33,591 nt of DNA from Candidatus Methanomethylicia archaeon (GTDB lineage: Archaea > Thermoproteota > Methanomethylicia > CALHIW01). The DNA lies in assembly GCA_038845975.1 (NCBI GenBank), contig JAWBQF010000030.1, forward strand, positions 1 to 33,591, read 5' to 3'. Each line of letters opens with the position of its first letter. Positions within the stretch are counted from its first letter, which is position 1. Made by a program: the position numbers and the translations under genes. The notes below the pieces were generated by a model that saw nothing but the letters and a program-made list of their open reading frames with translations, searched no databases and was not told the DNA's origin. This document shows, piece by piece, positions 15,025-33,349 of the stretch.

Positions 15025-15053
15025 CTCATAAAACAATCTATATCAGCCCGGAA

Positions 15054-15140
15054 AGCCCGGTGGAGACTATCGCCGATTGTAGTGGCCAAGCATAGCAGGC
15101 TCTGGCCCTGCTGACGGGAGTTCGAATCTCCCCCGGGCTA
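15054..15140 (+). tRNA. tRNA-Gln(CUG) with a 14-nt intron at 10/11 (15064-15077)
   Basis: AGCCCGG/CCGGGCT acceptor, GCAGG-CT CTG GC-CCTGC anticodon arm, GGGAG-TTCGAAT-CTCCC T arm. Removing AGACTATCGCCGAT restores the D stem GTGT/GCAT; BHB central helix CGGT/GCCG. Confidence 0.9.
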
Positions 15141-15309
15141 CTATCTCATGATTTCTTTTAATGGTTTACTTGCCATAATAATTATTATGAAACTTTACTT
15201 TAGATAGTTAAAATTATGGTTTTTTAATTTCTCTAGAGAATCAAGACATCGTTTGTATTTATTTTAGTGACACTAATAATTAATAAATACTTACAACAAG
15301 TCTGTCAAA

Positions 15310-23957: not shown

Positions 23958-24500
23958 ATGGTGTTATTATTGTCTTCAAATCCTTATATATGTAAGTTAA
24001 CAATTGATGGCGGATTGATAGAAGATGTAGATGCTATAAATAACCTCTATCATAATGATTTCTATGGTGAATTATCCGAAGGCATTTTAAAGCTTTTATC
24101 TGTTGAGGTACTATATCTAGAGCAGAAAGGCGTACTTATTGTTATTAATAATAAGAACCTAACTCTCTCTTTTGAGGATCTTATTAACTTCTATAGAAGA
24201 TATGATGAGGTTATTTGGGAGCGTTATTCACTATATCTTGACTTAAAACAGAGGGGGTATATTGTTAAAGGAGGTTTCAGTAATCGACTAGAATTTAGAG
24301 TATACAAAAGGGGGGCGTTTCCTCTCCATGATCCTGCAAATTTTATAGTAGTAGGAGTATTAGAAGGAAGACCCCTCTCACTTGAAGAACTCGATAAAAT
24401 AACAAGACAAACTAGAATTTCAAACAAGGAGTTAATCTTAGCTGTTATCGATAGAGAAGGGGGAATTACTTACTATGAAGTTGGCCTCATTACACTTTAA
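23958..24500 (+). CDS. endA: tRNA splicing endonuclease subunit, probably the structural (beta) subunit
   Basis: E.LYL, Y.DLK.RGY.VK, FRVY.RG, K.LILAVID and DREG.ITYYEV. The KYG.DF motif and the catalytic His are not conserved in position. Confidence 0.85.
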   Translation: MVLLLSSNPYICKLTIDGGLIEDVDAINNLYHNDFYGELSEGILKLLSVEVLYLEQKGVLIVINNKNLTLSFEDLINFYRRYDEVIWERYSLYLDLKQRGYIVKGGFSNRLEFRVYKRGAFPLHDPANFIVVGVLEGRPLSLEELDKITRQTRISNKELILAVIDREGGITYYEVGLITL

Positions 24501-25301
24501 CTCTAAGTATTAGGGTCTTCCACATCTTTAATAAATGATTTAGTTCTTTAACCGATTACTTCTCTATTTGCTCCACATATTTACTGTAAAAAGTAATTTC
24601 TTGAAAACTGTCATTTTTATACTTCTTCTAATAATCTTAGTGCCGAATGTTTCTCATTATGTACTGAAACATTACTAGATTTCCAGCTGTAAATAAGTTT
24701 TCATTTATTAAAGAAGTAAGAGTAGTAATAAGGTATTCTCAGTAATTTTTGGTTTAATTATTATATTAATTATAATCTTACTACTTTGTTGGTTTTACTT
24801 GAAGCTAGTGGTTTAGGATGAGAGTTAGATCATAAACATTTTAGGTTAATTTGTTGTACCAAGCATATCATGTTCGATATTCAAAACATTGATTTAATAC
24901 AATATCTATGTCTAATATTACATACTACAATATTTCCTTATTGAATAATCAAAAACTATGTAGAAGATGAAGTGGTTAAAATAGAATTTTCCATATAAGA
25001 AGATTAATAAATAATACATTATAAAATTGATAAAATTTCGGTTAATATTAGGTGTGTCTAACTTATGGTAGTTAACCGCTAAACTTAAGGTATTTTGCTG
25101 GGGTATGTGTTCATGCTAGGGAAGTTAGCCTGTACTGCTACTAGAATCATATATAAAATTGTTAAAAGTCATTCCAAAGAATAGTTTAAAATAAAAGCCA
25201 CCAGGAAGCTAGTTTACATCTGGCAGTTAACTGCTTGGCCTATTTGAGTACGTCCATTAAGTAGTTAAATCTTATATATTTGAATAATAAGATAGTATCC
25301 T

Positions 25302-25387
25302 GGGCCCGTAGCGCAGTATGGAAGCGCGTCGGCCTCCTATTAATTGAAGAAAGCCGTTGGTCGTGGGTTCAAATCCCACCGGGCCCG
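25302..25387 (+). tRNA. tRNA-Arg(CCU) with a 12-nt intron at 37/38 (25340-25351)
   Basis: GGGCCCG/CGGGCCC acceptor, GCGC D stem, loop CT CCT A|TTAATTGAAGAA|A, GTGGG-TTCAAAT-CCCAC T arm. Confidence 0.9.
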
Positions 25388-25404
25388 TTTTAAGGGAGTT
25401 ATTG

Positions 25405-26127: not shown

Positions 26128-26258
26128 GCGGGGGTTCCCGAGCCAGGATAAAGGGGCAGAATTGTTATGCCCAGGACTTAAGATCAATGTTATAAAGAGG
26201 TTGGATATACGAAATCCTGTGGCATAGGCCTTCGTGGGTTCAAATCCCACCCCCCGCA
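26128..26258 (+). tRNA. tRNA-Leu(UAA) with two introns: 29/30 (26160-26174) and 37/38 (26183-26213)
   Basis: GCGGGGG/CCCCCGC-A acceptor and a long variable arm. Intron 1 BHB helix GGGC/GCCC; spliced arm CAGGA-CT TAA GA-TCCTG. Confidence 0.88.
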
Positions 26259-29788: not shown

Positions 29789-30239
29789 CTCAAATCAAAT
29801 TAAAGTAGTAATATCTCTTAGGTAACTTAAATATATGTTGCTTAAATAAATTGTCCTTAGCAATTCGTGAAATTTATACGCTTTTTATCCATGGTTTCCT
29901 GAAAATCCTATTGTTTAAGTTGACTATAAAATCCTATCTCTAAGGGTTTCAGATAGGTTAATAGAGATTGTGAACTTAGCATGTTTATATTTCTGACCAT
30001 ATTTCATCAAATCCCAATTTAAGGCTTGAATTAACTGTCAATATATAGAATACTAAGTCTCTTTGACTGTCAATTATCTCCACGAGCTAAATAATTAACC
30101 ACAATGCTTTTACATATAAGTCCACAAAGTCGCTCTAATAGACGTAGCAACTTAGCGCACTATAGTTTTCTTCTTAAGCTGCCAGGTCCGCTCTAATTAA
30201 CGATAAATTTTTAAACTCCACGTATTTAAATAATATAGT

Positions 30240-30410
30240 CCCCGGGTAGCTCAGTCATGATGGAGTAATGGTAGGGAATCCCAGTAAAGAGCGATCGGCT
30301 GTAGATAATTATACATGGACCTTGCCTACTCAGGCGGGATGAAAATGTATCAGCTGAAACCGATTGGTCGGGGGTTCGAAATCTGTAGTACGAAAATCCC
30401 TCCCCGGGGA
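30240..30410 (+). tRNA. tRNA-Tyr(GUA) with four introns: 15/16 (30255-30268), D loop ~20a/20b (30274-30286), 37/38 (30305-30358), 59/60 (30381-30396)
   Basis: C1-G72 acceptor CCCCGGG/CCCGGGG-A, GCTC/GAGC D stem, ATCGG-CT GTA G|A-CCGAT anticodon arm, GGGGG/CCCTC T stem. BHB helices GCTC/GAGT, GTGG/CCAG (3/4), CTGT/GCTG (3/4) and TTCG/CGAA. Confidence 0.85.
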
Positions 30411-30641
30411 CTACTTTAGCTAAATTAAGTTTTTTATAATAAGGGGCTTATTATTTTATCTTAACATAACTAACATAAGATCATGTTTAGCTCTTTAAAA
30501 GGTTAATTTTTATTTCCTTTTAATATCTTTTTAGTTTTCCATAAATGAGAGTTGCTATAAAGAAAACAATTTTATTTTCTTCTAAAAATCTTTGATTACT
30601 GAACATTTGTAATGATTATTTACACATCATTACTTATAAAA

Positions 30642-30745
30642 TGGCGCCCCGGCCGAGATCTATTCATAACTTTTGAACTCGGGCCTGGCGGGTGACAGCC
30701 GCCAATACTGAACCGGGCTATACTCGGCATTAACTCTACCGGGGC
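30642..30745 (-). tRNA. tRNA-Asp(GUC) with encoded CCA and introns at 10/11 (30723-30735) and 58/59 (30660-30672)
   Basis: GCCCCGG/CCGGGGC-G-CCA and GGCGG-CT GTC AC-CCGCC; BHB helices CGGT/GCCG and GTTC/GAAT. Confidence 0.9.
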
Positions 30746-30777
30746 TTGCCGGGGCAAGATAATGTTTTCCTTATGAA

Positions 30778-30785
30778 TTTTTAAA
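30778..30785 (-). promoter_or_regulatory. putative TATA box of tRNA-Asp
   Basis: AAAAG-TTTAAAAA on the minus strand, starting 30 nt upstream of 30755. Confidence 0.6.
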
Positions 30786-31171: not shown

Positions 31172-31849
31172 GATACTGTCAAGTTGTTGGCATTGCTGGC
31201 AGCCTCTTTAGGGTTTGATGGGGCCTTATGAAGTTGTACCATAGGACGAAGAGCCTTATGAAGAGTTTATCTTGAATATAGACTTTACTGGAAGTTGTTA
31301 AAGAAGTGTCTAGTCCTAGCTTTCATTGTAGAACCATCGTTCAATACGGTTCCCCCGCGAAGGTTCTATGAATCCATTTAAGGCCTGAAGGGCTTCAGGA
31401 TACTGGGGCCACGAGGATGATGGCTATTCATACATGCTTCCAGAACCTTCCTCATGAAGGCTTCATGGAGGATATTCCTCCGCCATGAAACCCATAGCTA
31501 GAAGCTCACGCGTATCGACATCTATAGCAGCCCATACGTATCATCATTCCCATCAGCCTTAATCTTAGTCTCATCGACGGCTACCATACACCTAGGCTTA
31601 GCTCCAACGTTAACGGTCACGCGTTCCAGCTTCTAACCAAAGCCTTACGGCCTCGTAGCTGCACGGCACAAACCCCAGAACGTAGATTATTTCTCTGTAG
31701 CTCAGGCCAGCCATATAGCAGAACAGCCCTAACCCTCATCCGAAAACCTATCAATCCTAACAAACCACTATCCTCAAAGGCTTTAATAAGCCACCTAATA
31801 GACCTCCAAAAGCAGCTTCCCAAACCCCTAAAAATAACTTGACAGTATC
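31172..31849 (-). mobile_element. IS6-family element with a disrupted transposase
   Basis: Perfect 14-bp TIR GATACTGTCAAGTT (31172-31185 / 31836-31849) and direct repeat ATGCATACA (31163-31171 / 31850-31858). Fragments VAVDETKIK, YVWAAIDVDTRELLA and FVLWYNFIR.HQTL. Confidence 0.9.
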
Positions 31850-33217: not shown

Positions 33218-33315
33218 CGGGCCCGGTGGGATTTGAACCCACGACCACTGGGTTTCTTCAGGTTAAAAGCCCAGCGCTCTACCTAACTGAGCATCCCGTT
33301 TAGTATTACGGGCCC
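33218..33315 (-). tRNA. tRNA-Lys(UUU) with introns at 9/10 (33293-33306) and 37/38 (33254-33263)
   Basis: GGGCCCG/CGGGCCC-G, GCTC/GAGC and CTGGG-CT TTT A|ACCTGAAGAA|A-CCCAG; BHB helices CCCG/CGGG and CTTT/GAAG. Confidence 0.9.
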
Positions 33316-33349
33316 CTCCCCCGAGCCCATCAATGTTATTATAAGCCTA

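Follow-up and report, generated by a model that had tools for sequence, protein, structure and literature searches.

Acceptor-strand copies in the 5' leaders of archaeal tRNA genes with 5'-proximal introns

How can an intron be removed from a precursor tRNA when its splicing motif has to borrow bases from the acceptor stem? This question is raised by a tRNA-Asp(GTC) gene of a Candidatus Methanomethylicia archaeon (GenBank assembly GCA_038845975.1; 2.77 Mb, 33.7% G+C, 93% completeness), which occupies positions 30642-30755 on the minus strand of contig JAWBQF010000030.1. We refer to this contig (C30 in our numbering), analysed over its full length of 33,591 nucleotides (nt), as the window. It encodes archaeal proteins (AglB/STT3, both primase subunits, an H+-pyrophosphatase), and its DNA is also present in hot-spring metagenomes. 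The tRNA-Asp gene forms a G+C-rich island with two 13-nt introns, at tRNA positions 10/11 and 58/59, and a copy of its nt 1-7 lies just upstream of position 1. Among the tRNA genes that we found in this genome, such a leader element accompanies every intron at or before 10/11 and no other gene, and we consider it probable that it stands in for the 5' acceptor strand while the intron is removed. The parts of the locus are as follows.

30778-30785, minus strand: promoter-like box TTTAAAAA, read by eye, 40 nt 5' of tRNA-Asp position 1
30749-30755, minus strand: leader element GCCCCGG, by sequence a copy of tRNA-Asp nt 1-7; the same in the sister genome
30746-30748, minus strand: spacer CAA between the leader element and tRNA-Asp position 1; the same in the sister genome
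30736-30745, minus strand: exon 1, by sequence GCCCCGGTAG, nt 1-10, of which nt 5-8 (CGGT) are the 5' strand of the central helix
30723-30735, minus strand: intron 1, by sequence AGTTAATGCCGAG, 13 nt, at 10/11
30673-30722, minus strand: exon 2, 50 nt, nt 11-58, with the D arm, the anticodon arm (GTC at 30694-30696), the 5' strand of the T stem and TTCAA
30660-30672, minus strand: intron 2, by sequence AAGTTATGAATAG, 13 nt, at 58/59
30642-30659, minus strand: exon 3, nt 59-76, with the 3' strand of the T stem, CCGGGGC (30646-30652), G73 and an encoded CCA; it reads ATCTCGG CCGGGGC G CCA

Joined by these coordinates, the three exons give 78 nt that ARAGORN calls tRNA-Asp(gtc), with a 7-base-pair (bp) acceptor stem, a D arm, a GUC anticodon arm, a TTCAAAT-type T loop and the discriminator G73. 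All parts are collinear on a single strand within 114 nt, so this is not a split or permuted gene. The unspliced gene escapes both ARAGORN and Rfam: RF00005 has no match at 30642-30755 at the gathering threshold, at E values up to 10 or in a whole-genome search, as expected when introns break a gene at 10/11 and 58/59. A preliminary description of the locus, made from its letters alone, had given this layout correctly to the base, and the helix that it proposed between CGGT and GCCG is present (C5-G, G6-C, G7-C, U8-G).

In the motif known as bulge-helix-bulge (BHB), as set out in the accessible text of 10.64898/2026.10.13.758758, four exon bases 5' of the 5' bulge pair with intron bases 5' of the 3' bulge, the 3-nt bulges hold the cuts, and the flanking helices h and h' have at least 2 bp. 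The first Asp intron has such a four-pair central helix (C5 G6 G7 U8 with GCCG, one pair being G-U), flanked by the bulges A9 G10|A and A G|U11, and the minimum free energy (MFE) structure pairs CGGTA with TGCCG in this region. It has no h, C4 lying opposite A12, and no h', as a 6-nt loop closes the central helix; it is thus a relaxed motif without the canonical flanking helices. Its boundaries may slide by up to 2 bases owing to a repeated AG, and 10/11 is the placement that fits the 2+1 bulge rule. In the second intron, G53 U54 U55 C56 pair with GAAU (four pairs read by eye, one of them G-U), the bulges are A57 A58|A and A G|A59, and the outer helix h has 2 bp (A52-U60, G51-C61). Both introns are minimal 13-mers of one design: one base, a 6-nt A+T loop, four pairing bases and two bases. 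The genome carries two distinct EndA paralogues:

23958-24500, plus strand: EndA paralogue (PF01974, 60.5 bits at window positions 24213-24473)
C1:60193-60450: second EndA paralogue (PF01974, 99.6 bits)

These two genes point to a host with a two-subunit splicing endonuclease. Such enzymes accept relaxed BHB motifs, so the pair fits an archaeon that cuts introns of this kind, and, judging from its sequence, EndA is the enzyme expected to cut them. The gene at 23958-24500 shares the window with five intron-rich tRNA genes.

What could the leader copy do? Its predicted partner is the 3' acceptor strand of its own gene. The flanking t (30756) and c (30748) extend the predicted pairing to 9 bp with G65-G73, the energy of the leader/3' strand duplex is -21.2 kcal/mol, and in the MFE structure of the Asp precursor at 75 C tgccccggc is paired with GCCGGGGCG.

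This arrangement is not confined to tRNA-Asp. Scans for a T arm with acceptor pairing, for G+C islands and for a T arm alone, together with 29 Rfam matches, yielded 39 tRNA genes in this genome, an incomplete set, since no gene turned up for His, Tyr, Asn, Ile and some other tRNAs. Eight of them have an intron at or before 10/11:

10/11 introns: tRNA-Gln(TTG), tRNA-Gln(CTG), tRNA-Asp
9/10 introns: tRNA-Lys(TTT), tRNA-Met(CAT)
7/8 intron: tRNA-Pro(GGG)
3/4 introns: tRNA-Pro(TGG), tRNA-Trp

Each of the eight has, in its leader, a potential partner for the 3' acceptor strand of the same gene, and none of the 31 others does (Fisher exact P = 1.6e-8). The partner is an exact or G-U-compatible 7-mer no more than 30 nt upstream in seven of the eight; tRNA-Trp has a shifted partner of 5 bp. 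Duplex energies range from -12.2 to -21.2 kcal/mol in the eight and are -6.8 kcal/mol or weaker in the 31, which include genes with deeper D-arm introns and the isoacceptors Lys-CTT and the third Pro. The leader elements follow the acceptor sequence of each gene: GCCCCGG, AGCCCGG (twice), GGGCTCG, GGGCCTG, GGGGCCG and GGGGCTG. The preliminary description had held that the leader is specific to its gene, and this is confirmed; the tie of the element to introns next to the acceptor strand holds not only here but also in the sister genome and in most genes with 9/10 introns elsewhere, as described below. Two of these genes lie in the window beside tRNA-Asp:

15045-15139, plus strand: tRNA-Gln(CTG), with leader AGCCCGG at 15045-15051, spacer AA, exon 1 at 15054-15063 and a 14-nt intron, AGACTATCGCCGAT, at 15064-15077 (10/11)
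33219-33328, minus strand: tRNA-Lys(TTT), with leader GGGCTCG at 33322-33328 (C5 to T), spacer GGGGAG, exon 1 at 33307-33315, a 14-nt intron at 33293-33306 (9/10) and a second intron in the anticodon loop

The Gln gene with which the Asp gene had been compared is therefore real, with the leader, spacer and 10/11 intron listed here, and it is tRNA-Gln(CTG); the ARAGORN label His(gtg) at 15045-15141 is wrong. In its MFE structure, leader and 3' strand form one helix, and CGGTG and CGCCG form another. Hot-spring contigs of another organism carry AAGCCCGGTGG directly before position 15078, which corresponds to the Gln exon junction; with AGCCCGGTGG directly joined at 15078, these contigs lend indirect support to this splice junction. 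The further proposal, that the Asp and Gln introns are homologous and that one intron may have moved between tRNA genes, fares less well. The letters that they share (the initial A, GCCG and the final AG/AT) are those that pairing with nt 5-8 (CGGU) and the bulges demand, and the free loops (GTTAAT, GACTATC, AGTTTACCT), which are short and rich in AT, do not resemble one another. Since the likeness is confined to constrained bases, movement between these genes cannot be shown.

Only tRNA-Pro(TGG) and tRNA-Trp have introns and leaders that are clearly alike beyond the constrained bases. In both, motif rules make the last GGG ahead of the intron exon 1. Most of the central helix (GGUG with CACU, G1 completing it) and the outer helix (GG with C5 C6) then come from the leader GGGGT, and a more distal element, GGGGCTG in Pro-TGG and GGGCCAG in Trp, lies opposite the 3' strand.

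Promoter-like boxes begin 36-45 nt upstream in the eight leader genes and about 29-33 nt upstream in most others, distances read by eye because automatic picking is noisy in A+T-rich DNA. With boxes about 10 nt further upstream and the usual archaeal distance from box to start, the leader element should lie at the 5' end of the transcript, and thus, as far as promoter sequences can tell, should be transcribed. ARAGORN and Rfam missed or mislabelled five of the eight genes with 5'-proximal introns. When introns were allowed, ARAGORN gave the labels Trp, SeC, Asp(atc) or Pro(agg) to several interrupted genes. Such regions include window positions 15045-15141 and 25301-25388, with others throughout the genome, and a standard annotation would be badly wrong here.

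Are these elements maintained? The family has one other genome (G001, 62% complete) in a class of 62 genomes. All six orthologues found in it keep the element, although the surrounding DNA has changed. In tRNA-Asp, the element and the spacer are identical, and the intron, AGTTTAACGCCAAA, differs at four positions, including a change of GCCG to GCCA. Spacers differ between the genome under study and G001 in Gln-TTG (GA and AA, respectively), Lys (GGGGAG and GA) and Pro-TGG (AA and AAGAG). The Pro-GGG intron changes from GCTT to GCCT in G001, turning a G-U pair opposite nt 2-5 into G-C, and the Trp element reads GGGCCAG in the one and GGGCTAG in the other. Orthologues of Gln-CTG and Met-CAT were not found in the incomplete G001 assembly. 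Within the element, differences between copy and exon, and between the two genomes, are all C/T opposite G, with the exception of Trp, whose element is also degenerate and shifted in register.

A passive copy of nt 1-7 and a pairing partner of the 3' strand make different predictions, and the leaders of the wider set of genes described in the next paragraph bear on both. Many of these leaders read GGCGGGCY, which is complementary to G67/68-C72 together with G73, C74 and C75; the initial GGC thus stands opposite three bases for which the 5' strand has no equivalent. In 26 of 31 genes, the base that precedes the element pairs with N73 (shuffle mean 23.3; 77 of 2000 shuffles reach 26), and the next base pairs in 21 of 31 (shuffle mean 17.5; 24 of 2000 shuffles). 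These counts are rough, as one 3' strand was mis-picked (L052) and elements with mismatches were skipped. In the listed genes, the element positions opposite G67-G69 are C in 77 cases, T in 35, A in two and G in none, so that 35 of 37 departures from CCC are C-to-T changes that keep G-U pairing; this bias must be read with the facts that selection required at least two pyrimidines and that the lineages are related. The GGC facing G73-C75 and the near-restriction of variation to C and T indicate that the element behaves as an RNA helix partner of the 3' strand and not as a passive duplication, as far as comparison of sequences can tell.

To what extent does this association reach beyond the genus? 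A pattern for a 9/10 intron in tRNAs beginning GGGCCCGTA occurs at 11 sites in eight of 401 genomes of the phylum, and its reversed control at none. All eight sites outside the genus have the full motif with both flanking helices (hBHBh') and a leader that abuts position 1 and is complementary to the 3' end: GGCGGGCTC, GGCGGGCCA, GGCGGGCCT (twice), GGGGCGGGTCT, GGCGGGCCTA, GGGCCCGT and GGGCCCGC. A second scan, at one genome per species, returned at least 120 loci, of which 40 archaeal-type tRNA genes were kept and 80 dropped (79 bacterial-titled loci and the coding-like L160, none with a T arm or a matching 3' strand). The two scans together give 49 distinct 9/10-intron genes among the matches listed, and 38 of the 49 have the element. 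Its carriers are Bathyarchaeia, Hadarchaeota, a Hodarchaeaceae (Asgard) metagenome-assembled genome (MAG), a Methanobacteriota-labelled MAG, a contig binned as Acidoferrum, and this genus. The true leader beats about 97-100% of some 290 random 30-nt windows from the same locus in most of 35 element genes. Foreign-locus control tRNAs provided seven usable genes, and three of these, all Asp genes, have moderately strong but non-adjacent leader matches (-10.5 to -15.6). The Asp-type 10/11 pattern occurs in one of the 401 genomes, the genome under study itself, and thus in no independent lineage. We discarded AGCCCGG N1-9 AGCCCGG as a class-wide signal: it occurs in seven of the 62 genomes, the five outside the genus are coding-like chance matches, and the reversed control gives three matches.

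Folding models are consistent with a role of the leader in exposing the 5' strand. Partition-function calculations on the RNA starting at position 1, that is, without a leader, give the four central pairs a mean probability of 0.000-0.007; adding 25 nt of native leader brings this to 0.05-0.62 at 37 C and 0.006-0.44 at 70 C, in six of six genes. In the MFE structure of each of the six precursors, the leader is paired with the 3' strand; those of Asp, Gln-CTG and Lys-TTT also show the 5' strand paired with the intron.

We therefore favour, as the probable explanation, that the 5' leader of the precursor tRNA contains a cis-acting surrogate of the acceptor strand, a decoy that frees the true 5' strand for the BHB motif. 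The central helix uses acceptor bases (in Asp nt 5-8, CGGU with GCCG) and would have to compete with a 7-bp G+C-rich acceptor stem. The element would be transcribed first and remain free while the hairpin of 5' strand and intron forms; it would then capture the 3' acceptor strand as this emerges, in Asp over 9 bp including G73 and G65. With the 3' strand occupied, the true 5' strand would be available for the motif, the two-subunit endonuclease could cut and a ligase could join the exons. The native acceptor stem would then replace the leader helix, and the leader would be removed, presumably by RNase P. A wider version is possible, and we put it forward more tentatively: archaea outside DPANN may use a general, so far undescribed folding switch in which the 5' leader pairs with the 3' acceptor strand, the discriminator and CCA and makes introns from 3/4 to 10/11 spliceable. 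Leader evolution would thereby open the 'forbidden' 5' end to intron gain, and DPANN endonucleases would do without it.

Several observations weigh against the decoy strand. Five Micrarchaeota, three Aenigmatarchaeota and three unnamed archaea account for the 11 of the 49 listed genes that have a 9/10 intron without the element, so the leader is not indispensable for such an intron; moreover, the counted lineages are related, and the counts are hence not independent events. The first Asp intron is of the relaxed class, which, according to the accessible text of 10.64898/2026.10.13.758758, arises easily by chance. The change of GCCG to GCCA in the G001 Asp intron weakens its central helix, the Trp element is degenerate, and pairing at position 75 gives no signal (16 of 31, shuffle mean 17.0). 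In the folding models, leaders whose G+C-rich letters are retained in shuffled order can increase the helix probability as much as the native leader in some cases: at 37 C, the native and shuffled values are 0.256 and 0.257 for Asp, and 0.05 against a shuffled mean of 0.16 for Lys-TTT. At 70 C, the native probability is low for Gln-TTG (0.025) and Pro-GGG (0.006). When both introns are removed from Asp, the two-dimensional model at 37 C gives a probability of 0.98 for pairing of the copy with C72 and of 0.015 for G1-C72. Because the leader helix is still favoured after splicing, release must depend on factors outside the model, for example tertiary folding, proteins or RNase P cutting a minor conformer irreversibly. 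Finally, the archaeal RNase P RNA (RF00373) has no match in this 93%-complete genome; RF02357 likewise has none, but its control matched in no genome, so that this second negative carries no weight. The RNase P protein Rpp29 is present (C28:24062-24304), and the RNA may be divergent, interrupted or unassembled. We dropped the idea of an organism without RNase P, in which the endonuclease would make the 5' end.

Could the copy instead be a neutral by-product, left over from a tandem or slipped duplication of the 5' acceptor strand during the gain or movement of an intron and without a part in processing? Asp and both Gln genes have exact copies, a Bathyarchaeia-type gene (L051) has the perfect tandem GGGCCCGT GGGCCCGT, spacer length differs between the two genomes of the family, and DPANN genes work without the element. 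However, a GGC facing G73-C75 cannot come from a copy of nt 1-7, the C-to-T changes noted above keep 3'-strand pairing, and the element is retained in Thermoproteota, Hadarchaeota and an Asgard MAG as well as in six of six G001 orthologues amid drift. None of the 31 other tRNA genes in the genome has a leader alone. We therefore regard a neutral origin as quite unlikely. The preliminary description had left it open whether acceptor duplication is a precondition for intron gain or its by-product: the association with introns favours a precondition or facilitator, and GGCGGGCY and the almost exclusively C/T variation speak against a by-product. Of the intermediates that it proposed to look for, intron-only genes exist (the 11 of 49), but only in DPANN-labelled or unnamed archaea and not in relatives of this genome, and leader-only genes do not appear among the 31. 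Chance resemblance in G+C-rich tRNA flanks has a vanishingly small probability and is already refuted by the counts. Seven bases are few, and CCGG-type strings are partly self-complementary; yet the flanks are A+T-rich, the split of eight of eight against none of 31 is not expected by chance, the reversed control is empty in 401 genomes, and true leaders outdo nearly all random windows at their own loci.

Alternatively, the helix could be functional for another purpose, shielding CCA and the 3' end or blocking RNase P, RNase Z or aminoacylation until splicing is complete. We judge such a check on the order of processing unlikely, if still plausible. The helix often covers G73 and C74-C75, Asp and Gln-TTG encode CCA, and the two-dimensional model keeps the leader bound after splicing, as a block that needs active removal would be. 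This does not explain why the element is restricted to introns that use acceptor nucleotides; CCA-encoding genes with introns elsewhere lack it (for example C43:385-505 and C50:7844-7953), whereas Gln-CTG and Lys-TTT have it with no encoded CCA. Very improbable, in our view, is alternative exon use, in which the tRNA would really begin with the upstream copy and a larger intron would contain the second one, or two isoforms would be made. By sequence, either copy could provide nt 1-7, and in Asp a perfect helix of 4 bp is possible between the GCCG of the intron and the leader CGGc, which includes a spacer base, the bulges being aa|G1 and AG|T11. But nt 8-10 would be lost and the D stem broken in Asp and Gln, the additional 'intron' (CAA plus the copy, 10 nt) is too short for a motif, the helix is impossible in the Gln genes with their spacers AA and GA, and T-bearing copies would bring G-U pairs into the mature stem. 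As a general mechanism, we also considered and rejected a second BHB at -1/+1, since leader CGGc with GCCG works only in Asp and not in the Gln genes.

Other features of this genome were observed along the way. About 230 nt from tRNA-Asp, on the opposite strand, tRNA-Phe(GAA) (window positions 30237-30412, plus strand) has three apparent introns, in the D loop, the anticodon loop (about 55 nt) and the T loop. Its flanks lengthen the acceptor helix to 10 bp (AGTCCCCGGG with CCCGGGGACT), and a 7-bp acceptor would begin with C1-G72, which is unusual. A tRNA-Leu gene with two introns lies at 26128-26257 (plus strand); contigs from two of four hot-spring runs (X11, X14) have about 63 nt of it swapped for about 30 other letters, with 26156 joined to 26220, reflecting either strain-variable intron content or a paralogue. 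G+C-rich repeats occur at window positions 31374-31742, at C2:56852 and C21:41755, and on contigs C4, C8, C9, C11, C20, C33, C56 and C61. One repeat family contains GGGTGATGAAGG.TGGGCGGGGATG.TGGGCTACGGTAGACGTTGGG, another, adjoining tRNA-Asp, contains CGTAGCTGCACGGCACAAACCCCAGAACGTAGAT, and these repeats are probably genes of mobile elements. An isolated T arm with a 3' acceptor strand that resembles the 3' end of tRNA-Cys, with no tRNA body upstream, lies at C49:1183-1206 (plus strand) and is possibly the remnant of an integration site. The archaeal signal recognition particle RNA (RF01857, 129.8 bits) is at C50:8471-8788 (L012 1471-1788, minus strand), about 290 nt from the leader-bearing tRNA-Met(CAT).

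Reviews explain the positions of archaeal tRNA introns by the ability of exon and intron to form a BHB, and introns that borrow acceptor bases add a third player, the 5' leader. If the decoy strand is real, it would account for how a 4-bp helix competes with a 7-bp G+C-rich stem. It would also predict an obligatory order in which splicing is followed by refolding and then by trimming of the 5' end, and would make a leader complementary to the 3' end an annotation signature for missed 5'-proximal introns. Lineages with the element (Bathyarchaeia, Hadarchaeota and this genus) can be compared with Micrarchaeota and Aenigmatarchaeota to ask whether the leader is a precondition for intron gain.

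Non-canonical BHB introns of archaeal tRNA genes are well described (Marck & Grosjean, 2003; Sugahara et al., 2008; both as cited in the accessible parts of PMC4090602), and the same text records introns as far 5' as 3/4 in Thermoproteales. The introns studied here are like these BHB introns in their length (13-14 nt), 4-bp central helix, 3-nt bulges, occurrence of several per gene and two-subunit endonuclease. They differ in that the described motifs lie within exon and intron, and that 9/10 and 10/11 are not in the position list of PMC4090602, as far as its accessible text goes. In Lys and Met, the 9/10 intron comes with a helix h of 3 bp, G1-G3 pairing with C11-C13. The literature that we searched, as far as its text was accessible, mentions leaders only for split and permuted tRNAs, treats 3/4 introns without an account of the acceptor stem, and contains no leader copy and no leader complementary to the 3' strand; the primary papers on Thermoproteales introns and their supplements lie outside this search. 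There is a fair chance that the rule of leader complementarity is undescribed so far.

Split and permuted tRNAs, in Nanoarchaeum equitans, Caldivirga maquilingensis and Thermofilum pendens, offer the closest likeness, since there too flanking sequences pair to shape the endonuclease substrate (accessible parts of PMC4090602, PMC4033280, PMC4390854 and PMC3218864). In those systems, as the same texts present them, the flanks pair with each other, form the BHB and are removed by the endonuclease; here, the leader would pair with the mature 3' acceptor strand, outside the motif. Pro-TGG and Trp are a partial exception, as their GGGGT supplies part of the central and outer helices. The stems that process archaeal rRNA precursors also pair a 5' leader with the 3' end region before cleavage. 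In rRNA, however, the helix itself holds the cut sites as a BHB, whereas the helix proposed here would serve only as a competitor of the acceptor stem. Fujishima and colleagues reportedly described tRNA intron transposition in Thermoproteales in 2010. As in that case, similar introns occupy the same position in different genes of this genome (10/11 in Asp and Gln, 9/10 in Lys and Met, 3/4 in Pro-TGG and Trp); unlike that case, only the Pro-TGG and Trp introns are alike beyond what the motif constrains.

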